Of a stretch of 64,000 bases of DNA, positions 22,278 to 44,569 are shown piece after piece; position 1 is the stretch's first letter; the number at the start of each line of letters is the position of its first letter. The position numbers and the translations under genes are program-made. Source of the DNA: Schmidtea nova (taxonomy: Eukaryota); the NCBI GenBank assembly GCA_044892505.1, contig CM097882.1, positions 239,382,001 through 239,446,000 on the forward strand, read 5' to 3'. Under the pieces are notes generated by a model that searched no databases, was not told the origin of the DNA, and was given only the letters and a program-made list of their open reading frames with translations.

Positions 22278-22913
22278 TTGGTAACATGTTTGATGCATTA
22301 TAAATTGGGTTTGTTATTTAGTATGACGGAAACTAGCCAACAGCGAGAATTGGACAAGGCGTGGAGAATCCGCCGAGCATTGGAGAAGGAGCTAAACCAA
22401 GAAAAAGCCTTACGAGCCAAAGCAGAAGCTCAGATTCAGCATTTACGGACCAGCTGGTTCGCACCAGCTCGCATGAAGGAGCAGATGAGTCGGACAGAAA
22501 GGGCTCAAAGGACAGCTGACGATTATCGCACCGAATGGGAAGCAACAAAAATTGAGTTGCGCCGATGTCTCCATTCGGTGACGACTTCATTTATCGAGTC
22601 CGAATTGAAAGCACAAATCCGACCCATTACCTACCAGAAATGGGTAGGAGAACAGAAAGTGGCCTGCTCAGTCAGTACGGACACCGATGGACTCGAGGCA
22701 ACCACAGTGCAGAGTCGAGTGGAAACCACCACTGCACCAACTCCCGCCGGAAAACCGAATAAGCGAAAACGAATCGGCTCCAAGCGTCGTCGCCAAAGGA
22801 AGCTGTTTTCTCAGCAATTGCAGACACAAGTAACCACGATGGCAGGAATGTCGGAAGCCGAGTGGTTGGCAGAGATGTTTCCACCTGAAGGAATATTCAA
22901 AGAATTCCTATAA
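22278..22913 (+). CDS. LTR-internal ORF2, coiled-coil protein with basic NLS-like motif (first ATG 22323; copies at 2143-2778 and 48543-49178)
   Basis: Heptad-like N-terminus (RELDKAWRIRRALEKELNQEK) and KPNKRKRIGSKRRRQRK; intact in all 3 LTRs. Confidence 0.6.
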   Translation: MVTCLMHYKLGLLFSMTETSQQRELDKAWRIRRALEKELNQEKALRAKAEAQIQHLRTSWFAPARMKEQMSRTERAQRTADDYRTEWEATKIELRRCLHSVTTSFIESELKAQIRPITYQKWVGEQKVACSVSTDTDGLEATTVQSRVETTTAPTPAGKPNKRKRIGSKRRRQRKLFSQQLQTQVTTMAGMSEAEWLAEMFPPEGIFKEFL

Positions 22914-23411
22914 CAGCTAGAATACGATGTCAGATTGTGGACTTAATTAAAATTTTGCTCGTTTTTGTTTTTTTTTTGTTGTTGTTAATTCCTAAGTATT
23001 TTTCCTTCGATTACATAATTCGTACCATTACCTGTAAATTACCCGTCACACAACGAAAAGAGTAGCGATAAAGAACTTAAATATTATCAAATTCGTAGTT
23101 TCGTTTTGCTTGTTTGTTTTTTGTTTTTACGATAATTACATAACCGCACACACACACACAATAGAACTATAATTGCGTAAGTCCTTCTACGGCCGCGTGA
23201 ACCCGTAAACATAAAGGGGGAGTAGTCCTAGCAATAGTGCTCACCTGCCCCTCATTGTTTAATCACCCTGCGCATCACCAACTTGGTTATCAAGGGAAAT
23301 AATCAAGGGCGCTCGAGTGTAACTTACGACTATTTATGCATGATCATGGATGGAAGATCCCTAGCCGTCATTTGAATTTTTATCAACCCGTCCATGAACC
23401 CAGCATAAATT

Positions 23412-23429
23412 TGGGGGCTCAGCCGGGAT
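23412..23429 (+). other. Primer-binding site, tRNA-Pro-like
   Basis: TGGGGGCTCAGCCGGGAT, 16/18 match to the retroviral tRNA-Pro PBS TGGGGGCTCGTCCGGGAT, 6 nt after the LTR end. Confidence 0.85.
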
Positions 23430-23672
23430 CAACTTCGTTTTATCGGAAAAAGGTGAATGAAAAATCTGCAGAGAAGTTAAAGTGCTCGTGTCGTATGAAT
23501 AAATTTAATAAAAACAGAAAATTGGTAATTAAATCTAAATGATGTACAAAAATAAACAACAAACACAACAGCAAATAAAAGTAAAGTTATAAAAATCGAA
23601 TGCATGCATAAACAATTTGTCGGGACGACAATTTTCGGAAACACGGGGAGAGTAAATAAATGCTAAAAGATG

Positions 23673-23783
23673 CAAAACGAAACATATTACTACTTTAAAT
23701 AAATATTAAATTCACAAAACGAAACATATTACTACTTTAAATAAATATTAAATTCACAAAACGAGACATATTACTACTTTAAA
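23673..23783 (+). repeat. 42-bp tandem repeat x2.6 directly upstream of the RING ORF
   Basis: Unit CAAAACGAAACATATTACTACTTTAAATAAATATTAAATTCA starts at 23673, 23715 and 23757. Confidence 0.9.
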
Positions 23784-23784
23784 A

Positions 23785-24288
23785 ATGATAAAAACAACAA
23801 AGTTAAAACGATTATTTATTCAGCAAATGGAGGAAAAACTGAAAGAAATCGAAGAATTTCTCAACACAGAAAGCGAAACATTAGCAACAATTGGCAAGAA
23901 AATAAACCGATTTAGAGAAATTGAATTTCAAGAACCCACAACACAGACCGAAGAAACAGATGAATTAATAAAGATAACAGAAAGAACAAGTAAAATCGAC
24001 ATAAAAACCCGCTACAAATGGTACCAAGCACGACTAGAGAATGCGGAGCTAAACATTAGATGCAGACAAATAGAACAACAATTAACCCCAACATACAAGC
24101 GATGGAGGGCGCAAGGGGTAGAAGCAGCGAAAAAATACCGACAGTGCTATATATGTGAAAACAACGAGATACAAATTATGTTTTTACCTTGCGGACATTT
24201 CCGTTTTTGTAAGATCTGTGCCAGCAAGTGTGACCGGTGTCCGATGTGCAACTTTACCGTGAATGAAAAAATTATAGTTTATTTGTAA
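23785..24288 (+). CDS. Coiled-coil + C-terminal C3HC4 RING protein (IAP/MDM2-type RING, no BIR), 167 aa (copy at 3650-4153)
   Basis: CYICENNEIQIMFLPCGHFRFCKICASKCDRCPMC at 24145-24249, close to the C-terminus. Confidence 0.85.
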   Translation: MIKTTKLKRLFIQQMEEKLKEIEEFLNTESETLATIGKKINRFREIEFQEPTTQTEETDELIKITERTSKIDIKTRYKWYQARLENAELNIRCRQIEQQLTPTYKRWRAQGVEAAKKYRQCYICENNEIQIMFLPCGHFRFCKICASKCDRCPMCNFTVNEKIIVYL

Positions 24289-24770
24289 TAAATGTTTAGA
24301 GTTGATTAGTAAAAGATCGAATGGTGAATCATGGGAACAATCATTGTATTTAAATAATTTTTGAGCTACTGCAAAGTAGTCCGATAAGAATCCATTGGGG
24401 GGTACCGATTGATCAACCTAGTCAGGGTATATAGAAAGGGGCCCATCGCAAATGTTGGAAAGTTTTTGTGATGTGATTGATCACCACATCCTGCATTAAT
24501 AGACCAACGCGATCTTTGTGTATATTTTGGTTGGGGAGAGAGATAGGGAAATCTCGATGGAGTAAAGCGCGCATAGAGAAAAATAAATAAAAAGTTGAAG
24601 CAGACTGATCAGGAATTAGTTATGATAGAACAAAGAGATAAATGACAATTTTGAGAGAATAAAAGGTGCATAGTCAGCTCGCATAGAAGTAGTTATAACT
24701 CAGCTGAGAAGTTTTAATCGCTAGCGAAGTAGGGAATTGTGATTAACCGGTTAAGTAAAGTTATACGAGA

Positions 24771-24853
24771 TTTGTCCCTTGAAACAAAGGGTTATTAGAG
24801 TTGTCCCTTGAAACAAAGGGTTATTAGCGGTTTGTCCCTTGAAAAAAAGGGTT
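24771..24853 (+). repeat. 3 x ~30-bp tandem repeat containing a CCCTT-N6-AAGGG inverted repeat
   Basis: TTGTCCCTTGAAACAAAGGGTT(ATTAG) three times. Confidence 0.9.
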
Positions 24854-24904
24854 GAGGCCAACGAGCCTTATTGAATGACCTAGCTAGGCGTTATGGAGAG
24901 ATTA

Positions 24905-25084
24905 ATTGAGGCCAATAGAGCCAGTGAGATATTAAATTAAGGCCAATAGAGCCATGTGAGATATTAAATTAAGGCCAATAGAGCCATGTGAGATATTAAA
25001 ATTGAGGCCAATAGAGCCATTTGAGATAGTAAAATGAGGCCAATAGAGCCATGTGAGATATAAAATTGAGGCCAAAAGAGCCAT
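24905..25084 (+). repeat. 6 x ~31-bp tandem repeat carrying CCAAT boxes; possible internal promoter
   Basis: Unit ~ATTGAGGCCAATAGAGCCATGTGAGATATTAA; five units have GGCCAATAG, the sixth GGCCAAAAG. Confidence 0.85.
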
Positions 25085-25694
25085 AGTGGATTATAGAGAT
25101 ATCCGGATAAATAGTAACAGAGGGAATATAGACCCATAGTGTAATCGTCGACGAGATTTAGAATAGTGCGCACTAGTAGTTAAGAAATGCGAGTAAAGCT
25201 GATTATGCAACCTTAAGTAAAGCATGCAAGGAGAATAATAAAAATTCGAGCTGACCGGAGCAACCGGCAGAATGAGTAAAACGATTGCTAGCAGGGAATA
25301 ATGAATAAAGATGATAAAATAATGATAAACGAGTCAGAAAGACTCAGGGAATTAGAGCGCTCGAGCGACCAATAAATTGGGAAACTGTGGGAAAAGTAAT
25401 GGATTTGATAAAACATAGATAATTATTACGACATAAATAGATAATTGTGACCAGTCTATAGATAATTTAAATAGACTAAAAATAAAGGGGAATCTGGGAA
25501 TTGGGAAATAATGAAAACCCAGTAATAAGTAATCCCGAAAGAAAGGGAATAAAAGCGCGACGATAACAATAAGGTATCGTTGAGGACCTTTGTATTTTAG
25601 ATATACAAATCAATCAAATCAATCAAGCAACAAGAAGAATCAGAAAAACGATAATAGATAGGACAAGAAAATTGATAATATAAAAGTAATCCAG

Positions 25695-28600
25695 TTGAGA
25701 AAAGGAGCAAAGAGTGTCGCAATAAAGCCAACAAAAAAGCAGAAAGCCGGCAAAGATAACCACAAAAACCCACAAGGGAGTAAAGCGAGGAAAATAATAA
25801 GAGATAAATCAATTATCGAAAACGATAAATTGTCAGTAGTAAGCAACAGCTCAAGTAACAAAGAGAACCAAGCGGAACCCAAGGAGAACCAAACAAGCGA
25901 AATAGAAAGCGACGAAACTATCAACGATAATATCGAAGAAGTAGAAAACGAGGTAGAACCAGAGGTAGAAACCAACGAAAGTGATAACGAAAGTATAATA
26001 TCAGATAACGAAGGAATAAGAGAAACAGAAAGCGATTCAAGCTCGAGTGGAACAGAAGACGAACATAACAACGAACTAGAAACAAGAGGAAACGAAAGTA
26101 AAATAACTCAAGACAGCGGAATTGAAATGGGTGAACCAAGAGAAGAAATAAAGGATAAATTTTCAGGAGAACCGTTTAACGGAGATGCGAGTAAATTGGA
26201 AATTTTTCTAAAGGAATTTGGCATATTCGTGGAAGTATGCAAATGGAAAGCTGAGACAACAGCAAGTAGAATACAGTTATATTTGAAAGATAGTGCATTG
26301 GACCTATATTTGGAAGCGAAAAATGGTACCAATCCACCTACAAGCTGGTCAGCGATAAAGGATTTTTTCCAGCAAACATTTGGAATAAATAAAGTGCTAA
26401 GCGAAGCATTCATAGAATTTTCGATGAGAAAACAAAAGATGAATGAGTCTAACGCGGTATACGCGAGCGAACTGAAAAAATTAGCAAAATCGGTATTCAA
26501 GGATGGGGGTCCAATAAACGAGGAATTAATGGCAGCCATCTTCATAGGAGGATTAAGAAGACCCGACATAAGAGCGCAAGTTGGATGCCAAGGATGCAAA
26601 ACCATAGACCAAGCGTTAGAGACAGCTAACCGATTTGAATTACATATGATAGGAAGCGAGGGTAGAATTTATTTAGCCATGGACACAGCACAAACCGAAC
26701 CAGAGGTAAATCTCAACAATCACATTCCAAATTCGCAACAATTAAACCGACCACCCCCTCAACGAAGGAATGAAGGAAATAAAGTGCAGAACTTTGGAAA
26801 CCAAAACAATTACCACCCTCAAGGACAAACAAAACAATGTAAAACATGCGGGAAGTTGGGACACTGGCAGCAAGAATGCTACCAAAATTTGAATTGCGGA
26901 AAATGTGGAGTTAAAGGACACTCGGAAAGTAGATGTTCTACAATAATCTGTTTTAATTGCGGACGACCTGGTCACTACTCAAGGAATTGCGGACAAAAAG
27001 GTAATCAACGGGGAAATTGGCAGAACAACGGAAACCGACCAAATTACGGAAATCAAACAAATACTGCAAATCGACAAGATTATGGCAACCAACAGGTCAA
27101 TAATAACAATAATCAGAACAAAACTACCACCAAAGAAATACATTTGATGCAAGAAGTTCAAAGATTGACGGAACTTATAAACAATACGACGAGAGGGAAC
27201 CCGCAAACCAATCAACAACAAATTAGCATGATGAGAAAAATAGAAAGCGAAAACGAACGATTGAATCGAGAAAGTCAAGCACGACACGCTCAGGAATGGG
27301 CAAGAATACAAAGAGAGGATGAACAAAAACAGCAAGAAAGAGAACGACAACCTCTAAGAATTAACATGCTAAGAGCAACAAACCAAACAGACACTCGCGA
27401 GAAAGAAACCACACTGGAAATGAATTCGATAGACCCGAATCCAGCCGACAACGAAAGTCGAAAAGAAATAGTACAAAAAGATGAGGAAGTAGAAAAAGAA
27501 GTAGAAAAGGAAGCGGAAACTGAGATAAACCAAGAAGAGAGAAGAAAAATTTGGAAAAAAGGAATGATGGTAATCATGCCCAACGACCATGTGTTTCGAT
27601 TCCAATATAACGCAAAAGAAAAGGTGGAAATACTATTCAATAAAGTAAACCAGATGATTCCAGGAGTAACGAAACTGCCCAGAGAAGCGTTCTTACAAAT
27701 AGGAGATGCACCATCAGTAAAATTGAAATTAACGGATATATGGGAAAACATGGGAGTAACAGAGACAAAAAGAAATGTGATGAGAATCAAAGAAATAGAA
27801 TCAGAAGAAATTCCACCACCAGTGCGTCACGAAACCCGAATCAGCCGAATATTTAAAGGAAAAATGATACGAAGACGTTTGAAAGAAATAGACGAGTTAG
27901 AGAAGAAAATGAGAAAAGTCGAAGTAATAGAGGATAAGAGTGAACCAACACTAGAGATTGCCAAAAACGAACCAGAACCAACGGAGAATATACAAGGGGA
28001 AACGAACCAAATAGCTCATATTAGTATGTTAAGAAATACCACCAGAGAGTTTTCCGATGAAGAAGAAGATAGCGACATCAGTAGCCTAGCAGGAGACATA
28101 TTAAACGAATCCGAAGACGAAAATAAAGAGAGAGAAGTAATAAAGACCTCAGAACCTACACAGATAAAAGTAGATGAAATCCAGAAATTACTAGATAACT
28201 CGTTAGAAGTAATATATAACGAAGAGTTCATGGACAAGAAACAATATCGGAAATTCATGAAAGCATTATTACAAATGAACTACAAAGATTGGTTACAAGA
28301 CCGGGAAGTGGACATGTTAAATCGATACGTAGGGAAATTAATAGAGGAACCACTCCTCAATTACACTATCTCAATAATAATAAATACATCTACACCAAGA
28401 ATCTGGATCAAAACTCCATTTACAGACGATATCTACAGATGGGTAGAGGATAGACTAGGGAGCTCATATAAAAACAAATTCATCTATTCGCAGAATAGAC
28501 TCGTAAAGAAAAGAACGCACTTAGTAGAAACAGGTATATGGCCAGGAGAAATAACTCTGTTATCAATATGTGATGAGAAGGAAGAAGAGAACCTACAAGA

Positions 28601-31600
28601 AGTTGCAAGGGAAGCAAACACGTGCTTTGAAAGGAGAATAAAACCCCGGTTAGAATACGAGAAAGAACGAGTCTTACGAAAGAATCTAAATTCCCTGATA
28701 GAACAAATCATACCACAAGTCAAAAAACATAGAAAAGAGTTAATGAGAAGCGAATACGAGAAACTGAAACGATGTATTGAGTGCATACGTGACACAAGTC
28801 ACACGAGATGGTCACAAATCTCACACGACAAATTAATCGCAAAAATGGGAAAAACAATGTTCAGACAAGGGAAAATAACAGACCTAAAAATTTCAGTGGA
28901 ATTGCCTAATGAAGACACCAAAGAAATTGAAGTAGTAGCGGATTGCACCATTAAAGAATTAATAAATGTCATCAACGAGACACTAGTGCAAAGAGAACCA
29001 GAAGACGAATGGGAAGACGACATAATCATACAATATAACGAACATGTATTATGGGATCACGATGAGAGACGACTATATAAAATCGGTATATGGGATAATC
29101 ACCAAACCATCCACGTTATCAGAATGGACGATACACCCAGAGAAACTGCTAAAGATGAGAAAAGAGAACGGGAACGACGGAAAGAAGTTGTGCGCAAATT
29201 ACAACAAATAGTAGAAATTTATCGAAATTGGCGAATTTGGCCAGAGTGGGAAAATGTATTAGAAGAACTCAATCTCAACAGACGAATACGAACACCCATA
29301 GAAAAACAATGGAACGAGAAAGGAAAATGTTGGGAACCAAAAGAAGGGGAATATGAAGAAGAATATGAAAGAGGAATGGAAGATGACTGCGAACCAGAAA
29401 TGAGAAGGGTTTGCATGGTGACAAGGAAAGCTACGCCAATAGACCTAGATGGACCAGAAACAGCGGCTATATGGGTAGAAAAGGAAAAGCAAAAAACGGA
29501 AGAATTTGTCGAAATATTAAAAACTAATGCGCACGGTAAGAGAAAAATAATAAAAGGTCTCGCAGATTTTTTCGTGGTTAATGGAGAAGATATAACATGC
29601 TTACGCAAAGTAGCAAAAGCAATCGCAGAATATAAAAGAGTCAACGAGTGGTGCCCGGAACAACTAGACCATGTAATTAGGAAATGGAGAAACCAAGAAT
29701 TCTCGCAGGAAATTCCACAGAAAGTGCATTTAAGAATAATATATCCAAACAAGGATAAGGAAGAATTGTGGGTAGGAATAGCAGAAAAAATTCGAGATAT
29801 TAAAAAGAAATTGAGATACGAACCACCATTCCATTTACAACACCAAGGACGATCATTAGATAACAGTTTGGAAATCAGAATAACGCCAGCACAACTAGAT
29901 CTCATGAATACCTTGACAGTAGAAGCAATAGCAGGTCAACCATTGAAACGTAAAGAAGAAAACCATAAACCACACGGAAGTATAAGTACGCCGAGCCCGA
30001 TGAAATCAGTACTAACACCAGGGACAAGTTCAAGACGATCTGAGACAACACCCAGAGGGAATAGAGAAATGACTCCACCACAACCATACGACGTGGACGA
30101 AATTTTAACGGATAGCGACGATATGATAGAAGAATTAACCGAATTAACAAAAGAAAAAGACGATAACATTTTCGAAAGAATACAAGAATTACCTACGACA
30201 ATACAAGTAACCAACACCGGAGAAACAGAAGTCGAAGAAGAAATAATAATAGAAGAAATAAACGATTTGATAGAAGACGAAGCGAGAGGGACGAATGTCG
30301 AAAATGTACAATTAACCCAAGAAATGGAAAGATGGTTAGAAGAAAGAGCTAACGAACCAAGAGATGTCACGGAAGAAACAGGACGAGCAACAAGATTTGT
30401 GGAAACGGTTACAGGAATGGATAGACGACCTCGAGGTAGACCCAAGACAGATCCGGCAAATGTAGTCATCAGAAATAAGGATGAAAAGAGACAAGATCAA
30501 TGGGAAGTATGTTTAAAGAAATTAAATAAAATCGCGGAGATAAAAGAAAAAGAGACAACACCAATATGTCAAGGTGAGGAATGGATATCGAAAACAATAA
30601 TGGAAATATTGGCAATAATTGATCCGGAATTGAAAAAATACTGGCGTATAACTGAGATAAGCGAAAAGGCGAAGTCATTGCACAGCGCAATTGCACCCAT
30701 CTTACCGGAATTCATAAAAGTAAAGACGAAGTCAAATCATTTAGACTGGCAAGGAACCACTACGTTAATAAAGAAATTGACAGAAGGAGCGGAAACAGAT
30801 AACAAATACGTGATAGCCATTGCATACACCATCTACAACCTACTAACACTGAGTAGAGGTCGACCAAAACCCACTGCGTTGGAAAGACACATAAAAAATA
30901 CCGCAAAAATTATAGCCAGAGAAATAGAACCATACATCATTAACAAAGGAGGATGGGAAACATTTATAAAAACTAACCAGAAGAAAACGCAAGCCAAGAA
31001 TATGAAAAAGAAATTCGAAAAAATATTGGAAGAGTTAGAAAAAGAACAAGCAGGAACAGGAAACGCGAAGTCATCAATGAATTTGAGTTCTATAATAATG
31101 ATGATGTTGATATGGATGATTAGCACCGATAGCGCAACAGCATTCGAAGTGTTTGATTGCGACCAAATGAAGTTAGGAGAAAAGTATTCATTGAGAGGTA
31201 CGGAGCAATGCAAAGATGCAACTCCAGTAGAGTTGCAAAAGATTAAAAAGGAACAATGGTACCACGTGTATCAAGAAGCAGAACTCATAAAGACAATGGT
31301 GAATGAATGTAAGGTGCAGAAGACAAGATTCGCATTCTACTGCGGGAGAGGACATTATTCAGCAATTGTCATGCCAGGAACGGAAAGAGAACCAATCGTG
31401 TTACAAGGAGAGGACTGCGAAGCATTGTTTAAACATGGAGAAGTAACAACAAGAGATAAAATCAAGATAAAAGGAAAGCCAGGAATGATGATGCAACAGA
31501 CGTACTATGTAGCAGGACGGATTACGGGAGGAGAAGGATATTGTCAAGGAGAAACCTACCCGATGTTCGGAACACTCGCAACCAACTTAGTGGTGATGGA

Positions 31601-37600: not shown

Positions 37601-40600
37601 CGAAGGACAAAACGCACTGTTAAGATACCTTTTGAAATTTACTTGTGATCAGAAGACATTACTAACCTTATTAGACAGGGGAAACATAAACATCACAAAA
37701 AATGAAGAAGAACACAAATTCGATAAAGAGAAGGAGGTCTTATTCAACAAAATTAGGAAATGGTGTGCAAAACCACTTGATAAACTAATAACATACAAAG
37801 ACATAAATAATTTTAACGATAAATACCAGACTATAGTAAGTGAGTACGAGGAATTAGTAAAAATCTTAAACCATCCCGAAAAATGCAAACAGGTTTTGGA
37901 GAGAAAAGAAAGAGAAAGTAACAAGAAACTCACACCACTCTTCAAAGCAGAAGCACCATACCAAGCTAGACTAGATGCGATACAAGAAAAAGCAAAGGAG
38001 TTGCTACCGGACTTCGAGAATTGTCAACACGCATTAGAAATACTCGGTGCCTTAGTTGAAAAAGTACACGCGTACGCAAAAGGAACATACAATGGTAACG
38101 ATATAACGACTATAAAAAAAGAAATGCCAGTAACATTTTTACTACCAAAGGACGGAATAATGCCCATACATAGAGCTTTACGAAATGGCAAAGATAGAAA
38201 AGTAATGGAAATTGCACGAATAATGCTAAACTGCGGAAGCAACATGAATATGGTAGACGAGAAAGGAGATACACTCATGATATTTGCAGCAAGGGCCAAA
38301 ACAAAAACAAAAGTGTTGGAAGAACTATACAAAGCAGGTGCAGGACTTACAGGAAAGACAGATAAAGATAATTCAATTTTGGATGTAGCATTACTAACAC
38401 ATAATTGGGAAATGGTCAACTTCATTAAAACAATCTCAAATCAGGAAGAAATAGATTACCTAACTGATACGGTCAGGAAACCCAGTGTACTAGCAATGAT
38501 GAACAACGTCGAACTAACAGAATCAATACTTACGTGGATAAATCCGAATACCAACGAACCAGCATTCAAGATTAATGAGTTTACAGAACATAACCAAAAC
38601 TGGTGTATAAGAAGTGCCCTAATAACATATAAATGGCCAGAGATATTGAAGATGTTTATGGAAAGAAAGGATCTAAGAGTCACAAACAACCCGAGAGAGG
38701 GAAAATACACAGGCAAATGGAAAGAATTAATGAGGACATACATCAACAATTGGATCAAGGCCAAAAAGGAAATCTTAGAATATAAATCCACTAACAAAAT
38801 AATACCGGAGCAGATAGAAACACAAGAATTTGAGGCAAGTAATCTAACGACATTAGCATACGCAAAATTGATAGAAGAAATCAATGTCGAGGACGACATT
38901 TTCGACGAGCCAGGGGGAGATGACAACACAGATAGTGACGACGGTAACAACTCAGAAAATTCAAGCGATCACGAACCACCCGATAAAGAGGAAAACGAGA
39001 GAAAAGACAAGAAACGAGACAAGGAAGGAAAGAAAGGTGAAGACGAAAAACAAAGAGATGAAGAGAGAGAACAAGGAACAAACGACCAAGGAGATAAAAA
39101 TGACACCCAAAGAACAGGTTATAAATCAACCATAAAACCATTCTTCAAACCAGAATTACTATTACTAACAATGATTATAACGTTAATTAATCCAAGTCAA
39201 GGAATGACATGTGAAGAAAGGGCAATAATACAAATAAAAAACGCAAAAGGAATCGAACGAGTATGTTGGTCAAAAAAGGACAAAATCACGGAACAAAATA
39301 GCCCGATGGATTGCAGAATCTCAAAACACGAGCAAGAAATCATAGAGATCAACGACCTGGATCTAAATACCTGGTACAAAATATGCACCGTTAGAAAACA
39401 AAAGCATCCAAGATCACACAACAAAATCGCATGTGCAAAATACCAAACACCTAAAGCAGCCATGACAATACAACAGTCACCCAAAGGAGATTACATCATC
39501 GGAAAATGTGGAAGGACAGAGACACAGGGAACAGAAAACAAAAAACCCCAGGCAACAGATAAGCAAACAACACCAACCCTACGAATTACAATAGAGAGGC
39601 CTGAAGCAAGAGTTGCCACAAACGAAACCGAAAGAGTGTCCTACCAAATGGAAGTATTATGTTTAGCACTCATACTAATAATGATAAAACGATTAGAGGA
39701 AGGGATAGAAATTGAAACTATGACAATAACAGAAGTAGAAGATACACAGAATACTAACATAAAATGTTGGGCGAGAAATAACGAGGAAATCGGCGTAAAC
39801 GAAATAAGGAAAAGTCGAAAACCAACAACGAATAAAGTAATTAAAATATCCGAAGTAAAAGCAGATAAGACGTACAAACTATGCCTACTAGAAAAAGAAA
39901 CGAACAAGAAAGGTACCACAAAATGTAAAACATTTCAACCTGGAGAGGTAATAAAGTTCAGAAGGAGAACGAGGAAGAGAAATAAACAAATCAAGCGGAA
40001 AGTAAACATAACATTAGAAATAAAAGAGATAGAACCAAATGTGAAAGGAGTATGCTGGAGGAAGTACGAAAAAGAAGTAAATAAAAGAACGACACCACAT
40101 TGTCGAACAAACACAGGAACAACGACGATTCAAATAAAAGGTTTAGAAAGTAAACAAACCTACGAAATATGTTTGGTAAAGAAAAATGATCAGATAACGA
40201 TAAACGACCTAGAATGCGGAATATATACAACGTCATCCGGAACAAGAACCAAAACGTTAACACGGAAAAATAAAAGGAAACAACGAAACAAAGGAAAACC
40301 GAAGTACACCACTACCTTTAAAAACAATAAACAACCAACAAACCAAGAAGTTACGACGAAACCCGAGAGAAAAACATCAGCAACTCTAACATTATGGAAA
40401 ATAGAGAATAAAACATTAGAAATATGTTGGATAATAGTACAGAAACATATAAGAAGACAATCAAGAGAATGCAGAAAAACAAATAAAGAAATCAAGATCG
40501 AAAAACTACAATTTAATAGCGAGTACGAAGTATACGCAATAGAAATAATGGACGCACTAAGAAACCAACAAGAAAGATGCGAAACCTACTATACACCAGT

Positions 40601-42611
40601 AAACGCGACATCAAAAGGAATAACAAGGAAACTCGAATTCAGGGAACTAAGCCAAACGAATGAACAAATGGACGCAGAAAAAATAATAATCGACCCTCAA
40701 GCAAAATGGACACCCGAAGAAGTTATCAAAGAAGTCAAAAGAAAGCAAGAGGAACGAGAACAATTAATGAGAAAACTAAAAGGACAATACGGAATAATGT
40801 TCAACCAAAGCAAATCTATACAAACAGACGAGAATAAACAAATCAAAGAATTAATTGGCTTAGGAATATTAACAGCGACCATACCCGTAATAATCGCGTT
40901 ATCAGCTATATGGATACGCAAGATAAACCCAAGGAAATCGGCAACCCAATGGCCAAATATAGACAATACAAGCCATGGAGTTGAAATACTGGAAGAAAAC
41001 GCACGAGAAGAACCAAAACCGACCAGGAATAAGAAAGAAGCAAAAATCGCAAAACTAGGAATGAACAACAAAGACAAGGAAATAAAAGAGATTAAAGGAG
41101 AAGAGAAAAAATATGAAAGGCGAACCAGAAGCCTACCGCAGAGTTCAAAATGGTTGGGTCTAACAATAATATTGACATTAATCAATGGGGAAGAAGCAAT
41201 AAACCCACAGACAGGGATAAAAATAATAAATGTCCAGGAAGTCGAGAAAATATGTTGGTATAGAGAAGATGAACCAATTGGAGAAAATAACCCACTAAAA
41301 TGCATAATCCGAAAATCCGACCAGGATATAATACGAATAGAAGAAATGGATGGAGGGACCATGCATCGGATATGCATAATAGAAAAGGAAAAGAAGTCGG
41401 GGCTACCTAAGACAGTCGTATGCCAAAAATATGAAACGCCTAGACTTGAATGGTATAGAGTAAAACCAACAAAGAAAGAAATCAAAAACACAATAGATCA
41501 ACCAGCAACTCAGATGAAAAACACAACGGACAAACCAGGAGAAGGGGAGAGAAGCACAAATAACACGAGAGAAGAAGTATCACCCCAACAAGATTTCGTA
41601 TGCATAGCGTTAATAATAGCAATGTCCAAACGTATCGATAAAGGAATAAGAATAGAACAAATGGCTATGACAATAAGGAGAAAAAACCAAAGTAACAAAA
41701 TATGCTGGGTATGGTACAACGAACCAAGAGAATACCAAGTTCAGACAAGCGACGAATCACGAACAAACAAGGAAATCGAAATACAAGAAATACAAATGAA
41801 TGAAGAAGGAAGTATATGTATATGGGAGAAAGGAACCCAAGAAGATCAACCCGGAATAGAAAATTGCAAGACATTCCAAAAAGGAGAAACTCTGAAATTC
41901 GATGAAGAAGAACTAACTAAAACAGAAAGAACTCTGACATTAACAGGACTCGATCAGACAGTTAAAGTAATATGTTGGACAAAACATAAACCAGAAGTGG
42001 AAGAAGACAACCTAACCCACTGTAAAGAAATAAAGAATAAAGAAAAAGTCGAATTAAAGAAAATGGAAGTAAATAGGACATACGCGATATGTACCTTCAC
42101 CAGAAAAGGTTCAGAAAAACCAGAATGCGGATTATATCAGATCTCAGAGAAACTATCACAACAGACCGAACCAGGAGGCGTAGAAAACCAGACGACGAAA
42201 AATGACGTCAAACAACTACTAAACCGCCATTGGTCTACCCAAGAAGTAATGAACAAAGTCAAGAGTCAAATACCAAAAGAGAAGAAGCCAGAGGCTCAAA
42301 CCCAAAATGAGATAAAAGCGAACCAGAATAAAAGAGAAACAAACAGTGGAAAAACAATAATAGGATTAATGAGTATAGGAATATTAATAGCATATGGAAT
42401 ACTGACGACAAGCATAATAGTATATTGGAGATACAGAAAGAGAAACAAAGCGACAGCCATACAATGGCCAGATATTAAAATCATGAAACTAGGAATAGAA
42501 ATACCAGAGGAGATACAGAAAGAATTTCAAAGAAGAACGAAAGGTAAAGAATTCTGGAAACAAATAGAAGATGAAGAACGATACGAAGAAAAGACGATAA
42601 TGATGGTATAG
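25695..42611 (+). CDS. 5638-aa polyprotein: Gag - Ubl x4 - Bcl-2-like - Env-like glycoprotein - PR - RT - RNase H - IN - ANK - FN3-like/TM modules
   Basis: Uninterrupted ORF; the track start is TTG and the first in-frame ATG is at 26127. Motifs: 3 CCHC knuckles (26838-26990), DTG (33525), YIDD (34740), RNase H DAS (35187), HHCC (35832-35954), DDE core, GPY (36756). Confidence 0.95.
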   Translation: MRKGAKSVAIKPTKKQKAGKDNHKNPQGSKARKIIRDKSIIENDKLSVVSNSSSNKENQAEPKENQTSEIESDETINDNIEEVENEVEPEVETNESDNESIISDNEGIRETESDSSSSGTEDEHNNELETRGNESKITQDSGIEMGEPREEIKDKFSGEPFNGDASKLEIFLKEFGIFVEVCKWKAETTASRIQLYLKDSALDLYLEAKNGTNPPTSWSAIKDFFQQTFGINKVLSEAFIEFSMRKQKMNESNAVYASELKKLAKSVFKDGGPINEELMAAIFIGGLRRPDIRAQVGCQGCKTIDQALETANRFELHMIGSEGRIYLAMDTAQTEPEVNLNNHIPNSQQLNRPPPQRRNEGNKVQNFGNQNNYHPQGQTKQCKTCGKLGHWQQECYQNLNCGKCGVKGHSESRCSTIICFNCGRPGHYSRNCGQKGNQRGNWQNNGNRPNYGNQTNTANRQDYGNQQVNNNNNQNKTTTKEIHLMQEVQRLTELINNTTRGNPQTNQQQISMMRKIESENERLNRESQARHAQEWARIQREDEQKQQERERQPLRINMLRATNQTDTREKETTLEMNSIDPNPADNESRKEIVQKDEEVEKEVEKEAETEINQEERRKIWKKGMMVIMPNDHVFRFQYNAKEKVEILFNKVNQMIPGVTKLPREAFLQIGDAPSVKLKLTDIWENMGVTETKRNVMRIKEIESEEIPPPVRHETRISRIFKGKMIRRRLKEIDELEKKMRKVEVIEDKSEPTLEIAKNEPEPTENIQGETNQIAHISMLRNTTREFSDEEEDSDISSLAGDILNESEDENKEREVIKTSEPTQIKVDEIQKLLDNSLEVIYNEEFMDKKQYRKFMKALLQMNYKDWLQDREVDMLNRYVGKLIEEPLLNYTISIIINTSTPRIWIKTPFTDDIYRWVEDRLGSSYKNKFIYSQNRLVKKRTHLVETGIWPGEITLLSICDEKEEENLQEVAREANTCFERRIKPRLEYEKERVLRKNLNSLIEQIIPQVKKHRKELMRSEYEKLKRCIECIRDTSHTRWSQISHDKLIAKMGKTMFRQGKITDLKISVELPNEDTKEIEVVADCTIKELINVINETLVQREPEDEWEDDIIIQYNEHVLWDHDERRLYKIGIWDNHQTIHVIRMDDTPRETAKDEKRERERRKEVVRKLQQIVEIYRNWRIWPEWENVLEELNLNRRIRTPIEKQWNEKGKCWEPKEGEYEEEYERGMEDDCEPEMRRVCMVTRKATPIDLDGPETAAIWVEKEKQKTEEFVEILKTNAHGKRKIIKGLADFFVVNGEDITCLRKVAKAIAEYKRVNEWCPEQLDHVIRKWRNQEFSQEIPQKVHLRIIYPNKDKEELWVGIAEKIRDIKKKLRYEPPFHLQHQGRSLDNSLEIRITPAQLDLMNTLTVEAIAGQPLKRKEENHKPHGSISTPSPMKSVLTPGTSSRRSETTPRGNREMTPPQPYDVDEILTDSDDMIEELTELTKEKDDNIFERIQELPTTIQVTNTGETEVEEEIIIEEINDLIEDEARGTNVENVQLTQEMERWLEERANEPRDVTEETGRATRFVETVTGMDRRPRGRPKTDPANVVIRNKDEKRQDQWEVCLKKLNKIAEIKEKETTPICQGEEWISKTIMEILAIIDPELKKYWRITEISEKAKSLHSAIAPILPEFIKVKTKSNHLDWQGTTTLIKKLTEGAETDNKYVIAIAYTIYNLLTLSRGRPKPTALERHIKNTAKIIAREIEPYIINKGGWETFIKTNQKKTQAKNMKKKFEKILEELEKEQAGTGNAKSSMNLSSIIMMMLIWMISTDSATAFEVFDCDQMKLGEKYSLRGTEQCKDATPVELQKIKKEQWYHVYQEAELIKTMVNECKVQKTRFAFYCGRGHYSAIVMPGTEREPIVLQGEDCEALFKHGEVTTRDKIKIKGKPGMMMQQTYYVAGRITGGEGYCQGETYPMFGTLATNLVVMDTYIVELKSYEAFFEPTTGEMKTLSMCKIDRSMCQTGMSTLVYKPKVNECQLQLLQGAKFDEIQGKTFQEEDDDDKARAKHLKEALENKRQLKPDHREKRIEMRATPTVLITTNQDVGMRFIKGKATLKCSTTVYETNYPGIYVSKQEVPNAKPKIDTMDIKLHLYVNNKMDFLFHRGQASLQKVYYDLINNDCILNREILKTKLAVAITNPDSAMPLLPLREGHFGRVVGEAMYVYICEKTHASLAATTQLKPGTCTNELEIDYKGKVRYVQPVTRIINPPGFEPNPFNCSNAYGPLYQKPDGKWVMFPGRSEVIAPREFELMQLSKDRQFSDVDVSNNGIYSPKDLEAARQNILFPARREALLSNIVTITGGTDYREGPNYELLLSPAHFKKATENMMKAMWGRFLIFGQMMAGILGVILIIQIVRVIITQMLACFDIYKREKRVNWKMVVGFLPFLAKTMVLHGHSKDIHRIKRLLKILAKMKGTDEEVGRKFKKIMNDEQARQQLKRERKGLWERVKGYKTQNDSSDDDDDDDDYKGGQVYKNQAPQYIEKNPADAWKCYAPPPTMYQEPLQGGKNSTMQMMPMTNVYPMIPEDYKMRRCRSVDPQGDTHTIAVMSSNTGPVLTTTIEINGREIEAMIDTGANISAIDIKWIPQEQRREIERTNVHVIACSKEVVEVAGRWWVKIRHLNTEIDTYVAVIPALSVPCIIGTDLMPALFKEIVIDLGTMRLKDRTGQICAIEAKVTSSKQMIIPARKEKICYVKIDPTIQGDMIFEPSKRFEKRKALPMARGLVNINDNGEIPINVVNFDEEDKIIYENERLGKLTPMMDIELPIAGAEKDKEPTWNIDSELLNENQKKQLEKLLTEYKDIFAASDLDLGTCDVTLHTIPLTDETPIALRPYKLAEAQKAVAEAEVKKMLDAEVIEPSCSPWQFPVVMVKKKDGTQRFCIDYRRLNTVTKRDTYPLPDINEMLLTLQGAAYFTSLDLKSGYWQIKMKEEDKEKTAFTIGRDLYQFRKMPFGLTNAPASFQRCMNFVTHGIKQCMVYIDDLLIYSSTFEQHIQDIRDVFVRLRQWKLKLKPSKCDWAKEKVTFLGHIVSAKGKEPDPRNIDKVKECPVPKTITQIQEFLGLCGYYRKFIKDYAGIAKPIQELVKKDVSFIWGDEQQTAFETLRDKLITAPILVHPDFKKPFLLATDASGYAAGAVLGQYDDEGKERVIGYYSRTFKKHEKNYSVTEREALAIILAIKHFKYLLWGHIICITTDYQPLVWLGQHKETSSRLMRWAMQLQEYSPDIKFKSGRANANADCMSRLTFPELTDPDVQRICVLIAEDLDFSELKKDQQEDRELGQIIEFLTSRNIEVLKDNKELKEHIGKYQHRYIINKGWLLIQDGEKRLMCLPENRRKEIMIQYHDGKLGGHMSEKKTINRMRQKYYWRTMEEDIKEWIKNCLTCATRKDSGKKWKNPLQPMPIPAEPMTTIAMDVIGPLPESLNGNIYILVITDYLTKFPEAFAMQDQKAKTVAKILVEEICCRYGTPKQILTDQGTNFMSELLGEVTNYFRIAKLRTSPYHPQTNGQTERFNGTLIRMLSNYVSRHQTDWDEYIKLCLMAYRMSIHAATKLSPFQLMYGRECNMPIDLEYQPPLSQYMEDDDYVTKFKERMQEIWKTAELNIKFYQESYKDLHDQKKNVKANDLKPGDWVIIETPEIIPGTVKKLQRPGRGPYEIIYKKDNNVKVKLINRPLIRPIYVNTCRCKKVPKTITTTPENRIITRSQTARINMLRANTSEDDKTEIRQKEIRNKEILLKAREIMGRWHVRDEAGISRDIRHIISRYAQGLPTEPIISELLIKIPEILLLKDVGGQPALHNAIQCKNIERAKEFLKIAKDTNQNLDVGNREQETPLMTAAIYQADKEMVDLLIKARFSWTERDREDKTVLNHAIWSSHQLMLEYIIANSTWEIDELVKGDIIKEAIKIGKCNTIRKLIKWKRPEDDTWVLDINEVYSEGQNALLRYLLKFTCDQKTLLTLLDRGNINITKNEEEHKFDKEKEVLFNKIRKWCAKPLDKLITYKDINNFNDKYQTIVSEYEELVKILNHPEKCKQVLERKERESNKKLTPLFKAEAPYQARLDAIQEKAKELLPDFENCQHALEILGALVEKVHAYAKGTYNGNDITTIKKEMPVTFLLPKDGIMPIHRALRNGKDRKVMEIARIMLNCGSNMNMVDEKGDTLMIFAARAKTKTKVLEELYKAGAGLTGKTDKDNSILDVALLTHNWEMVNFIKTISNQEEIDYLTDTVRKPSVLAMMNNVELTESILTWINPNTNEPAFKINEFTEHNQNWCIRSALITYKWPEILKMFMERKDLRVTNNPREGKYTGKWKELMRTYINNWIKAKKEILEYKSTNKIIPEQIETQEFEASNLTTLAYAKLIEEINVEDDIFDEPGGDDNTDSDDGNNSENSSDHEPPDKEENERKDKKRDKEGKKGEDEKQRDEEREQGTNDQGDKNDTQRTGYKSTIKPFFKPELLLLTMIITLINPSQGMTCEERAIIQIKNAKGIERVCWSKKDKITEQNSPMDCRISKHEQEIIEINDLDLNTWYKICTVRKQKHPRSHNKIACAKYQTPKAAMTIQQSPKGDYIIGKCGRTETQGTENKKPQATDKQTTPTLRITIERPEARVATNETERVSYQMEVLCLALILIMIKRLEEGIEIETMTITEVEDTQNTNIKCWARNNEEIGVNEIRKSRKPTTNKVIKISEVKADKTYKLCLLEKETNKKGTTKCKTFQPGEVIKFRRRTRKRNKQIKRKVNITLEIKEIEPNVKGVCWRKYEKEVNKRTTPHCRTNTGTTTIQIKGLESKQTYEICLVKKNDQITINDLECGIYTTSSGTRTKTLTRKNKRKQRNKGKPKYTTTFKNNKQPTNQEVTTKPERKTSATLTLWKIENKTLEICWIIVQKHIRRQSRECRKTNKEIKIEKLQFNSEYEVYAIEIMDALRNQQERCETYYTPVNATSKGITRKLEFRELSQTNEQMDAEKIIIDPQAKWTPEEVIKEVKRKQEEREQLMRKLKGQYGIMFNQSKSIQTDENKQIKELIGLGILTATIPVIIALSAIWIRKINPRKSATQWPNIDNTSHGVEILEENAREEPKPTRNKKEAKIAKLGMNNKDKEIKEIKGEEKKYERRTRSLPQSSKWLGLTIILTLINGEEAINPQTGIKIINVQEVEKICWYREDEPIGENNPLKCIIRKSDQDIIRIEEMDGGTMHRICIIEKEKKSGLPKTVVCQKYETPRLEWYRVKPTKKEIKNTIDQPATQMKNTTDKPGEGERSTNNTREEVSPQQDFVCIALIIAMSKRIDKGIRIEQMAMTIRRKNQSNKICWVWYNEPREYQVQTSDESRTNKEIEIQEIQMNEEGSICIWEKGTQEDQPGIENCKTFQKGETLKFDEEELTKTERTLTLTGLDQTVKVICWTKHKPEVEEDNLTHCKEIKNKEKVELKKMEVNRTYAICTFTRKGSEKPECGLYQISEKLSQQTEPGGVENQTTKNDVKQLLNRHWSTQEVMNKVKSQIPKEKKPEAQTQNEIKANQNKRETNSGKTIIGLMSIGILIAYGILTTSIIVYWRYRKRNKATAIQWPDIKIMKLGIEIPEEIQKEFQRRTKGKEFWKQIEDEERYEEKTIMMV
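26127..26990 (+). CDS. gag: Gag (capsid-like region + three CCHC zinc knuckles), part of polyprotein
   Basis: FNGDASKLEIFLKEF...W capsid-type start; CKTCGKLGHWQQEC, CGKCGVKGHSESRC, CFNCGRPGHYSRNC. Confidence 0.92.
27564..29927 (+). CDS. Region with up to four ubiquitin-like (beta-grasp) domains, part of polyprotein
   Basis: Best copy 28884-29123 (LKISVELPNEDTKEIEVVADCTIKELINVIN...IQYNEHVL...RRLYKIGIWDNHQTIHVI) follows the ubiquitin pattern; weaker copies at 27564-27791, 28362-28571 and 29721-29927. Confidence 0.5.
30495..30971 (+). CDS. Bcl-2-like helical domain, part of polyprotein
   Basis: BH2-like IEPYIINKGGWETFIK (compare WIxxxGGWxxF) ending a ~160-aa helical segment; BH1 is degenerate. 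Confidence 0.6.
31077..32912 (+). CDS. env: Envelope-like fusion glycoprotein (chuvirus-G / class III-like), part of polyprotein
   Basis: Signal-like MNLSSIIMMMLIWMISTDSATA|FEVFDC; Cys pattern ECKV..RFAFYCG; YVNNKMDF...LQKVYYDLINNDCILNREIL..LAVA..P..A...GHFGRVVGEAMYVYIC...CTNEL; TM at 32817-32912. Confidence 0.75.
33444..33800 (+). CDS. Retropepsin aspartic protease, part of polyprotein
   Basis: IEINGREIEAMIDTGANISAI ... CIIGTDLM; boundaries approximate. Confidence 0.93.
34140..35530 (+). CDS. pol: Reverse transcriptase + RNase H, part of polyprotein
   Basis: SPWQFPVVMVKKKDG, RFCIDYRRLN, LDLKSGYWQI, MPFGLTNAPASFQ, YIDD, FLGH; LATDASG, YSVTEREALA; boundaries approximate. Confidence 0.97.
35790..36870 (+). 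CDS. Integrase (HHCC, DDE, GPY/F), part of polyprotein
   Basis: YHDGKLGGH...CLTC; AMDVIGPLP; LTDQGTNF; YHPQTNGQTERFN; GRGPYEI; boundaries approximate. Confidence 0.96.
37170..38430 (+). CDS. Two clusters of ankyrin repeats downstream of integrase, part of polyprotein
   Basis: GQPALHNAI, ETPLMTAA, KTVLNHAI (37170-37450); GIMPIHRAL, GDTLMIFAA, NSILDVAL (38151-38430). Confidence 0.8.
39156..42480 (+). CDS. Two tandem membrane-protein modules: signal + 4 or 3 Cys-containing FN3-like repeats + TM, part of polyprotein
   Basis: Signals LLLLTMIITLINPSQG (39156) and WLGLTIILTLINGEEA (41151); repeats with CW...I.I..L...Y.IC...C..Y/F; TMs at ~40851-40917 and 42357-42428. The repeats are clear; the FN3 fold is inferred. 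Confidence 0.55.
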
Positions 42612-42738
42612 GGGCGGATTATGACTGTAAATAATAGTGTAAATAACAAAGCATTACCGTAATAGTATGGGTATCGATATTATAAAAAAATTGTAAAAAG
42701 ATAGAAAAGCAAAGTAAATAATGTATATAATTTAGAAA

Positions 42739-43095
42739 ATGACCGAACAGGACGAAACAACCGAAATAACTATGGCTATGAGATGGAAAGCACAATGCGA
42801 TTTATTAGTACGAACAGTCAACTCATTACAGAACCAATTAGCGGAAAAACAAATGTTACTATCAGAAAGTTATAACAATTGTTTCGAACAATTACACAGA
42901 ATAGAGGAACAACAAAGAGCGATAACTGAACTCACCAGGGAAAATCAAACGATAAGCAACACCAATCAAAGACAAGCAATAGAAATAAACCATTTAACAC
43001 GAGGAGAAAGAGAAGGATCCGAAGAAGGATGGATGAGTTGGGTAATAAATAGATTAAACAACGAAGCGGAACCAGATTCAACGAATGAGCCATAG
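42739..43095 (+). CDS. 118-aa coiled-coil protein, unknown function
   Basis: ATG-initiated ORF on the element's coding strand; Q/E/L-rich heptads. Confidence 0.65.
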   Translation: MTEQDETTEITMAMRWKAQCDLLVRTVNSLQNQLAEKQMLLSESYNNCFEQLHRIEEQQRAITELTRENQTISNTNQRQAIEINHLTRGEREGSEEGWMSWVINRLNNEAEPDSTNEP

Positions 43096-43192
43096 ATAAA
43101 TAAAGCGAAAAAAAAAAACTGTAAATATGTAAAAATAAAAACAAGAAAACCAAAAATAAATGACAGGTCGAATGTATATATTATTGTAGAAA

Positions 43193-44569
43193 ATGGACCG
43201 AGATGAACGGGTAATCGAAATCTTGAGATTAGAAAACAGAAAATGGAGCAAGAGGCTCACATGCGGAAAATGTAATAATTTATTGCGAGAACCCAGACAA
43301 ACGATATGTGGATGTAGAATATGTACAAAATGTATACAAGAATTAGATGCAACAGGAATAACAACATGCCCAGAATGTAAGGAAGGAAGAATAGTGTTGG
43401 ATGAAACCAGAATGGACAAAGCAACCCAAAGAGAAATTATGAGCACCACAACGGAGTGCGTAAATACACCTTGTACATGGCAAGGACAAATAAGTAATCT
43501 GGAAAACCATATGGAAAAATGCGAGGAAAAGAGAGCCGAATGCGAGAAATGCCAACAGACAATAACTCTAAAGAAGAGAGAACAACACAAGGAAGAATGT
43601 AAAGAAGAAGAAATCGCATGCGAGTATTGTGAAACTCGAGAAACAAGGAGAAAAATCGAAGAAGAACACTTAAATATAACAGAGGAGAAAGTATGCAGAC
43701 AATATGTAAGCAAATGTCCAAACAATTGCGAAATAACAGAAGAAATAAAGTTACATGAACATTGGAAAATATGTACCGAAAGGCCAAGAGAATGTCCATA
43801 TAACAAGCATGGATGCAAGGAAAAGCGGACGCGAAAAACAATGAAACAACACTTGGAAGAAGCAGCACTAACGCATGTGGAAATGACAAACGAAACGACA
43901 AAAGAAACAGAACAGACAGTCCAGAAATTAGAAAAAGAAGTAGAATCACATAAGATAATGATGAGTTTACTACTAGAAACAAGAGAGCAGTTTGAACTAA
44001 CTCGCGAAAGAATGGAAAAGAAAATAATAGCCATAGAAGAATTAGGAAAAGGAATGAAAATACAATATAATCAACTAATACGAGAAATTGACGAAAGAAG
44101 GGACTTACCAATCGCACCTTACCTATGGAAAGTAACAGATTTCAGAGACAAACTAGCAGAAGCCAGAAATATGACGAAAACAGCAGTAATAAGCCCACCA
44201 TTTTATTTATGGAAAAATGGGGTTAAAATAAGATTGAAGGTCTACCCAAATGGAGACGGAAGAGGACAAGGAACACACGTATCAATATTCTTCTCGTTAT
44301 GTAAAGGAGAATACGATGACCTAATAGAATGGCCCTTGAAAGTAGGAGTCATTATAAGAATCAAAAGTATAGGAAAACCAGTAGAAAAGTTCTTTGAAAC
44401 AGACAAACATACGAGTACAAGCGAAAAACCAACAACAGAATGCGGACTAGCAGCAGGAGAACCAATGTTTATAAGGAAAGAAAACCTATGGGAGCGACTA
44501 TATGCAGACACGCTATACATAGAGATGGAGAGGCATGAGAAAACGGATAGAAAAGGATGGTTGGCGTAA
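43193..44569 (+). CDS. TRAF: TNF receptor-associated factor homolog (RING - Zn fingers - coiled coil - MATH), intronless
   Basis: RING CGKC..LLREPRQTICGCRICTKC...CPEC (43262-43378); TRAF Zn fingers; MATH YLWKVTDF...SPPFY...IRLKVYPNGDGRGQGTHVSIFFSLCKGEYDDLIEWP. Confidence 0.93.
   Translation: MDRDERVIEILRLENRKWSKRLTCGKCNNLLREPRQTICGCRICTKCIQELDATGITTCPECKEGRIVLDETRMDKATQREIMSTTTECVNTPCTWQGQISNLENHMEKCEEKRAECEKCQQTITLKKREQHKEECKEEEIACEYCETRETRRKIEEEHLNITEEKVCRQYVSKCPNNCEITEEIKLHEHWKICTERPRECPYNKHGCKEKRTRKTMKQHLEEAALTHVEMTNETTKETEQTVQKLEKEVESHKIMMSLLLETREQFELTRERMEKKIIAIEELGKGMKIQYNQLIREIDERRDLPIAPYLWKVTDFRDKLAEARNMTKTAVISPPFYLWKNGVKIRLKVYPNGDGRGQGTHVSIFFSLCKGEYDDLIEWPLKVGVIIRIKSIGKPVEKFFETDKHTSTSEKPTTECGLAAGEPMFIRKENLWERLYADTLYIEMERHEKTDRKGWLA

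Follow-up and report, generated by a model that had tools for sequence, protein, structure and literature searches.

A Burro-type Gypsy element of the planarian Schmidtea nova with candidate cell-death and ubiquitin-signalling cargo

What would a long terminal repeat (LTR) retrotransposon do with a RING finger of the inhibitor-of-apoptosis (IAP) type, a Bcl-2-like domain, ubiquitin-like domains (Ubls), ankyrin repeats, receptor-like modules and a full TRAF protein? This question is raised by a stretch of 64,000 nucleotides from Schmidtea nova (GenBank assembly GCA_044892505.1, contig CM097882.1, forward-strand positions 239,382,001 to 239,446,000; the window hereafter), in which an earlier note, made from the letters alone, had proposed that such a cargo converges on cell death and on NF-kB/TNF-receptor signalling. 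We find the cargo where that note had placed it, on the plus strand and within a single LTR element, and the part of the theme that concerns cell death and ubiquitin signalling is supported, whereas the NF-kB/TNF-receptor part is not. With moderate confidence we interpret the element as a young member of an Env-bearing Gypsy family of the Burro type that is actively spreading; its cargo would act in the manner of viral accessory genes, sustaining the cell that produces it and holding down stress signalling there.

The element is an intact-looking Ty3/Gypsy retrotransposon of 29.3 kb (Table 1), with a 23.2-kb internal region, an LTR pair that is 99.8% alike (4 mismatches and 2 gaps) and a 4-bp target-site duplication with the same four bases at both ends (20336-20339 and 49671-49674). 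All its internal open reading frames (ORFs) lie on the plus strand, namely the RING ORF, a giant frame and four 3' ORFs. The giant frame encodes, in this order, Gag, a Ubl region, the Bcl-2-like domain, Env, protease (PR), a dUTPase-like segment, reverse transcriptase (RT), RNase H, integrase (IN), ankyrins and two modules of fibronectin type III domains with a transmembrane helix (FN3/TM), with Env fused in frame between Gag and Pol as in the Burro architecture. Env has a signal peptide-like segment (31077-31139) and, by hydropathy, a transmembrane helix, while the candidate dUTPase-like segment between PR and RT has five weak PDB matches, all of the dUTPase superfamily (E 0.19-1), and no Pfam match. 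Frames of at least 5,640 codons are open in 33 of the 150 genome matches listed, and the genome copy counts given here are lower bounds.

Three components together point to death and stress pathways. The IAP-type character of the RING ORF, claimed earlier from the translation, is confirmed by Pfam and by its top PDB matches, the RING fingers of cIAP2 and XIAP (E 3e-10 to 1e-9), with cIAP1 also among the best; a BIR domain, which an IAP should have, was sought with Pfam in this and the other ORFs of the element and none was found. The TRAF is indeed full length and of the TRAF2/3/5 type (Pfam MATH_2, E 1e-20; TRAF3, TRAF5 and TRAF2 as top PDB matches), with a Cys at the usual His ligand position of its RING finger. 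The Bcl-2-like domain, which adjoins the Env signal peptide on its upstream side, is weak alone (Pfam E 0.19) and finds no neighbour in the ESM Atlas; the same position in two further families of this genome, families 3 and 4, matches Pfam Bcl-2 (E 2e-5 and 5e-5), and a profile built from four families matches Bcl-xL (E 5e-4); for the Bcl-2 fold, hhalign gives a probability of 80%. A low-confidence model of the domain (pLDDT 54) retrieves the Bcl-2 family as the top 12 of 50 VIA matches and as all 46 Foldseek matches listed. The modelled domain thus appears to adopt the Bcl-2 helical fold in a degenerate form, and its BH1 stretch is devoid of the Trp retained in 5/5 host ORFs. Just before it, at ~30425-30450, lies a basic motif that is kept in families 2 and 3 and that presumably resembles an AT-hook.

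The array of Ubls proposed earlier is upheld for two domains and fails for the other two. A joint profile of the candidates matches ubiquitin (E 3e-7), but when each domain candidate was scored against 500 shuffles in a leave-one-out profile test only 2/4 passed. The two unsupported stretches have ratios of non-synonymous to synonymous diversity (piN/piS) of 0.32 (27549-27806) and 0.07 (28341-28586, in a strongly conserved block). The C-terminal di-glycine of conjugatable modifiers is absent from the ends of both supported Ubls.

The remaining cargo of the giant frame consists of the ankyrins and the receptor-like FN3/TM modules, which bear on the NF-kB part of the earlier proposal. The ankyrin repeats are real and generic, with no IkB in the best 60 of their 134 PDB matches. 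The FN3/TM modules are equally real: all seven FN3 repeats pass the leave-one-out test (0/500 shuffles each), and a model made from 15 aligned repeats (pLDDT 85) has FN3 as its best VIA match (Z 8.5, rmsd 2.4, 71 aligned), its structural matches being adhesion and receptor domains (Z 7.0-8.5) of no single prominent family. A profile of the whole module recovered no receptor (2 PDB matches, E 0.75-0.88), homologue searches with the modules found nothing, which is weak evidence by the tool's own grading, and the ESM Atlas gave FN3 neighbours at 0.89-0.92 with low recognition. The two modules are paralogous (31% identity, E 9e-46 in a direct comparison, although a self-BLAST of the polyprotein listed no repeats), and the tail of module B has a motif common to module A and to family 2; a W-P-x-I motif of the tail may correspond to half of the Box1 of cytokine receptors. 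TNF-receptor decoys are not recovered, the ectodomains consisting of FN3-fold beta sandwiches with no Pfam match to TNFR cysteine-rich repeats. A silencing of NF-kB by ankyrins of the IkB kind and by decoys of the TNF receptor is hence very unlikely. The TRAF2/3/5 type of the TRAF, a single match below the cut-off in a genome search for TNFR repeats (E 0.005) and the divergent Rel homology domain (RHD) genes reported in a planarian (PMC13563047) would fit such a role; against it stand the lack of an IkB in the best 60 ankyrin matches, the FN3 nature of the ectodomains and the same report's finding of no clear NF-kB homologue in a planarian. Our own RHD search of the genome gave no match, with the positive control equally silent, and is hence uninformative.

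The FN3 results leave room for quite another function, in which the cargo belongs to particle biology or to competition between elements: the FN3/TM modules would mediate adhesion or receptor interference as elements spread from cell to cell, and the RING, Ubl and ankyrin components would assist budding or degrade restriction or silencing factors. In keeping with it are the FN3 matches, scattered over adhesion and receptor domains without favouring any family, the generic ankyrins, the strong conservation of Env (piN/piS 0.06) and the absence of both BIR and BH1. We nevertheless consider it a less likely function, since a complete TRAF occurs here together with an IAP-type RING and a Bcl-2 fold, a combination that indicates death and stress pathways.

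Whether this cargo is maintained at all was addressed with piN/piS across the window copy and 26 of the 32 other copies in which the polyprotein frame is open. The replication genes are strongly constrained (Pol 0.02-0.04, Gag 0.05-0.07), and the supported Ubls, the Bcl-2-like domain (0.10), the ankyrin blocks (0.19-0.21), the TRAF (0.16-0.33), the RING ORF (0.29-0.31; RING finger 0.31) and the FN3 domains of module A (0.15-0.34) together span 0.06-0.34. Among the other separate ORFs the values are 0.18 for the 118-aa (amino acid) ORF, 0.13 for the 353-aa ORF and 0.41 for the 186-aa ORF. No interruption of the RING, 118-aa or TRAF ORF occurs in any of the 26 copies, and the 353-aa and 186-aa ORFs are full length in 25/26. 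The FN3 domains of module B are at 0.39-0.58, and the intervals of its domains B2 and B3, of the TM tails and of several linkers reach ~1. Thus, most of the cargo is under purifying selection among copies, with module B only weakly constrained, and it follows that the cargo matters to the replicating element. That the cargo is captured host DNA carried neutrally, an outcome that would have counted against the earlier note, draws on the intervals of B2, B3, the tails and the linkers, but it is at odds with the intervals of most cargo domains, which lie well below 1, with the uninterrupted ORFs, and with the cargo held in common with a sister family from which the synonymous distance is saturated; this reading is largely refuted except for module B and the linkers, and as a general account we give it next to no credence. 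The second outcome that would have counted against the earlier note, a failure of profile searches to uphold its Bcl-2, ankyrin and FN3 assignments, did not occur.

The copies recombine heavily, four-gamete conflicts increasing with distance in 11/11 regions. Site models (M1a/M2a) had given a significant signal of positive selection for the two FN3 modules (2dL 58.6 and 27.9); we rejected this signal because of the recombination, synonymous sites being as homoplastic as non-synonymous ones. The 26 copies (L001-L026, L053-L078) form two groups at both ends, with recombination between the groups: the RING frame has 177-194 or 153 codons and the last ORF 187-199 or 201 codons.

Taken together, these features suggest a mechanism in several steps. 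The element PR would cleave the polyprotein at junctions that share a recurrent motif, releasing Gag, Ubl-containing pieces, the Pol enzymes and an ankyrin piece. This motif, which was learned from four Pol junctions only, scores 15.1 and 15.6 after Gag; it has two matches of at least 10 in residues 450-1830, a number reached by 3/300 shuffles, is invariant in 27 copies at the two post-Gag sites and at one weaker site, and is kept at both ends of the PR block of the satellite element described below. The Bcl-2-like piece, lacking a tail anchor of its own, may keep the Env signal peptide as its anchor after the signal peptidase cut, a proposal we make because the domain abuts the Env signal segment, immediately upstream of Env, in 4/4 families sampled. 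The two FN3 modules would become single-pass surface proteins with short tails, and the four 3' ORFs would be made from spliced RNAs: a YAG lies 5-6 bases ahead of the ATG in 4/4 of them (as against 38/526 ATGs across the element) and is kept in 26/26 copies for three and in 10/26 for the fourth. No clear splice joint was seen among the rows listed for contigs of unrecorded kind from four runs. Pairing the TRAF MATH domain with the module B tail scored 0.00 in a prediction made without alignments and with an uncertain partner fold, and carries no weight either way. The RING, TRAF and Bcl-2-like products would then damp death and stress signalling in the particle-making cell, a role to which we also relate the increase in cell death upon knock-down of a host TRAF in a planarian (PMC7586133). 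The cargo would be kept for the replication of the element, any gain to the host being a side effect or a later step.

Several observations weigh against this interpretation. The likely role in death and ubiquitin signalling is deduced from sequence and folds; the Bcl-2-like domain lacks BH1 and the RING ORF lacks BIR, and the Z of 8.5 obtained with the low-confidence Bcl-2-like model (pLDDT 54) is below the tool's caution line for helical folds. The copies compared had been chosen for an open polyprotein frame (26 of 32 such copies), and B2 and B3, whose piN/piS is the highest among the FN3 domains, are indistinguishable from neutral. An extra short hydrophobic segment in each FN3 module (at 39636 in module A) leaves the topology unsettled, and the junction motif scores below 7.5 between the Ubls and also has matches inside Env and FN3.

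Related elements of this genome throw further light on the cargo. In family 2, of which two copies were read (L079-L086), a MATH domain lies inside the polyprotein and a single FN3x4-TM module carries the tail motif seen in the window element; apart from this MATH domain, no ORF of at least 110 codons matching the accessory ORFs of the window element was found in its two copies. Its RT is 89% identical to that of the window, and it retains the Ubl, Bcl-2-like, ankyrin and FN3x4-TM regions despite saturated third codon positions. The high RT identity had suggested a recent exchange of Pol between the two families, which was rejected because the third positions are saturated. Families 3 and 4 (one copy each) are smaller Burro-like elements with Ubl, Bcl-2 and Env only; each has a long 3' ORF without a Pfam match (L089:3083-5776, L093:2743-4689), which by eye resembles a DEDD-type exonuclease. 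About 14 kb past the family 3 copy lies a second IAP-type RING ORF on the minus strand (L090:9551-9901) that resembles the RING of the window.

A BIR search of the genome returned at least 150 matches, most of them in open frames of ~400 codons. In 10/10 loci sampled, the BIR-RING gene belongs to a non-autonomous satellite in which a 215-aa ORF, a TRAF and a BIR-RING IAP follow one another, and 9/10 loci also carry a short polyprotein (Ubl piece, protease, ankyrin) without Gag core, Env, RT or IN. The gene order is that of the window with the IAP inserted between the TRAF and the coiled-coil ORF, and the first ORF of the satellite is homologous to the RING ORF of the window. The satellite PR, ankyrin, TRAF and IAP RING are constrained (piN/piS 0.17-0.29; IAP RING 0.17), and the Ubl piece, at 0.90, is not. 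In the one copy compared, the satellite LTRs are ~93% identical to those of family 2, with the same ends and primer site, and the window LTR aligns to either over short stretches only; the satellite may be mobilised by family 2. Tentatively, we suggest that Burro elements carry a self-contained signalling kit (FN3 receptors, TRAF, RING ligases and a Bcl-2 mimic), and that in this genome a lineage has divided in two, with an autonomous helper that carries no accessory ORFs on one side and, on the other, a cargo satellite of high copy number that has the LTRs of the helper, the window family being the unsplit, IAP-less form; the satellite would retain the protease for processing its own cargo and supply TRAF and BIR-IAP.

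The satellite is also relevant to a mutualism between host and transposon, in which stem cells would be protected by the cargo to the benefit of the animal. Such a mutualism is compatible with the accessory-gene role favoured here, and it is suggested by the reported protection of stem cells against caspase-mediated death by the Burro1 B-IAP (PMC13465017) and by the open and constrained TRAF and IAP of the satellite (piN/piS 0.29; IAP RING 0.17). However, the window family has no BIR-IAP, and selection among copies reflects replication of the element rather than host fitness, and therefore cannot show a benefit to the host. Moreover, BURRO1 RNA interference (RNAi) brought no improvement of the smedwi-2 phenotype (PMC8532177), an experiment that was not designed as a test of benefit. 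On balance, we rate the mutualism as possible but not probable.

Table 1. Features of the window element, with the satellite for comparison (window positions unless a locus is named)
Feature	Position	Strand	Remarks
5' LTR	20340-23405	+	3,066 bp, TG...CA ends
Primer-binding-site region	23406-23430	+	core common to sister family 2 and satellite element
IAP-type RING ORF, 167 aa	23785-24288	+	Pfam zf-C3HC4_3, E 4e-11
Giant open frame	25662-42611	+	5,649 codons, first ATG 26127
Gag capsid domain and three CCHC knuckles	26127-26996	+	Retrotrans_gag E 1e-4, zf-CCHC (Pfam)
Ubl-looking stretches, call unsupported	27549-27806, 28341-28586	+	equalled by 141/500 and 271/500 shuffles
Ubl, supported	28869-29135	+	leave-one-out pass; piN/piS 0.08
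Ubl, supported	29709-29924	+	leave-one-out pass; piN/piS 0.06
Degenerate Bcl-2-fold domain (modelled)	30459-31010	+	BH2-like end retained, BH1 motif lost
Env	31077-32915	+	Monjiviricetes-type fusion ectodomain, PF24664, E 6e-71
PR, RT, RNase H, IN	within 33483-36881	+	Pfam
dUTPase-like segment	33813-34190	+	weak
Ankyrin blocks	36969-37751, 38127-38816	+	Ank_2 E 3e-14; blocks 24% identical to each other
FN3/TM module A	39141-41105	+	signal-like segment, four FN3, TM 40848-40928, short tail
Module A FN3 domains	39210-39461, 39693-39956, 39993-40241, 40368-40607	+	leave-one-out pass
FN3/TM module B	41142-42608	+	three FN3, TM 42348-42431, tail
Module B FN3 domains	41193-41447, 41637-41897, 41913-42155	+	leave-one-out pass
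Coiled-coil-like ORF, 118 aa	42739-43095	+	no confident family; satellite homologue
Full-length TRAF, 458 aa	43193-44569	+	RING, zinc fingers, coiled coil, MATH
Coiled-coil ORF, 353 aa	44684-45745	+	satellite homologue
186-aa ORF	45824-46384	+	signal-like start, one transmembrane-like segment (read from translation)
3' LTR	46602-49670	+	3,069 bp
Satellite, read end to end	L102:3311 to L105:2482 (further loci L107-L115)		RING ORF, PR-ankyrin polyprotein, TRAF, BIR-RING IAP, coiled-coil ORFs

The setting of the element has some peculiarities of its own. Each LTR contains two ORFs of 169 and 223 codons (21629-22138 and 22242-22913, and likewise in the 3' LTR) with no confident Pfam match and with weak homologues in family 3, antisense to its polyprotein. 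A search for tRNA genes within the window found none. The leader has tandem repeats at 24896-25097 and 23673-23783 (32-33 bp x5-6; 42 bp), and duplications occur in the leader of many window-family copies. Positions 1-16827 of the window duplicate 20136-36964, i.e. the 5' part of the element with its flank, at 99.98% identity up to a stretch of N, two single-base gaps disrupting the frame; either an assembly artefact or a recent tandem duplication could account for it. Elsewhere four window-family copies stand in tandem at ~33-kb spacing (G000:C1:590840000-590965000). The element itself is inserted in one arm of a large, foldback-like inverted repeat (49671-55599 / 55737-61666; 19933-20339 / 61663-62062) that is 99% perfect, with arms of more than 6 kb, a 137-bp centre and internal tandem repeats.

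How does this element compare with what has been published? According to their description (PMC6431247), the planarian Burro elements carry BIR, BCL2-like, MATH/TRAF, ankyrin, Ubi/SUMO-like and dUTPase-like domains with an in-frame Env, and a meddling with apoptosis and ubiquitination was already proposed for them there. Like the window element, Burro1/GYPSM1 and Burro2-4 have an internal region of more than 20 kb with one giant ORF and the Gypsy order PR-RT-RH (RNase H)-IN, a Gag with three CCHC knuckles, a Ubl and then a Bcl-2-like domain before a mononegavirus-like Env, ankyrins after IN and a TRAF/MATH domain somewhere in the element; they also have a dUTPase-like segment, for which the window element has a weak candidate. 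The Burro polyproteins are of 4,873 and 5,140 aa, as against the 5,649-codon frame of the window (PMC6431247). By this layout the window element is of the Burro type; the sequence matches obtained included no named Burro. It is not Burro1 proper, since its polyprotein has no MATH domain and no BIR was found in its ORFs. Further differences from the published elements are the full TRAF encoded by a 3' ORF, the duplicated ankyrin block and the two FN3-TM modules; of these modules section 7 of that description (PMC6431247) makes no mention. The Burro1 layout is instead fitted by P0002, which has 32% identity and MATH inside the polyprotein. The Burro1 B-IAP and the window RING are both element-borne IAP-type RING proteins, the latter without BIR; the BIR-RING protein of Burro1 was reportedly found to protect stem cells in a 2026 study (Lee et al., Dev Cell, as cited in PMC13465017). 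A retrotransposon with anti-death genes is thus already published, and what the window family adds is the FN3/TM modules and the stand-alone TRAF. The literature searched contained no report of FN3-TM modules, of a stand-alone full TRAF with a BIR-less RING or of a cargo satellite, though either the modules or the satellite could already be depicted in the figures or supplements of Grohme et al. 2018 and Lee et al. 2026.

The wider interest lies in the presence, in one genome, of three related elements with different cargo subsets: TRAF, a BIR-less RING and two FN3 modules in the window family, MATH and one FN3 module in family 2, and TRAF with BIR-IAP in the satellite. Family-specific knock-downs could therefore tell apart what the element gains and what the host gains, and the proposed split, if true, would amount to a two-component, virus-like retroelement system and to a natural experiment in selfish versus mutualistic cargo. 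An LTR polyprotein that includes receptor-like surface proteins would widen the accessory toolkit known from retroelements. In practical terms, element-borne ORFs of the TRAF, IAP and Bcl-2-like kinds number in the hundreds; they can swell host gene counts and be struck by RNAi meant for host genes.

Beyond Burro, the closest parallels to individual parts are with viral and cellular proteins. The Bcl-2-like domain shares a degenerate fold, eroded BH motifs and a mobile carrier with the viral Bcl-2 proteins (e.g. KSHV KsBcl-2, ASFV A179L, vaccinia A52 and myxoma M11L), but unlike them it is part of a retroelement polyprotein and stands beside an Env signal peptide; it may bind BH3 peptides or behave as the signalling inhibitors of the A52 type do. 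The FN3/TM modules resemble Dscam, NCAM, LAR, gp130 and the interferon receptors in combining tandem FN3 domains with a TM helix and a short tail. For the satellite, the comparable class is that of the non-autonomous LTR elements and the helper-dependent defective retroviruses: like these, it is without a Gag core, Env, RT or IN, and its LTRs and primer site are shared with an autonomous family, whereas it differs from them in its open protease, its ankyrins and its six accessory ORFs, several of which are under purifying selection.

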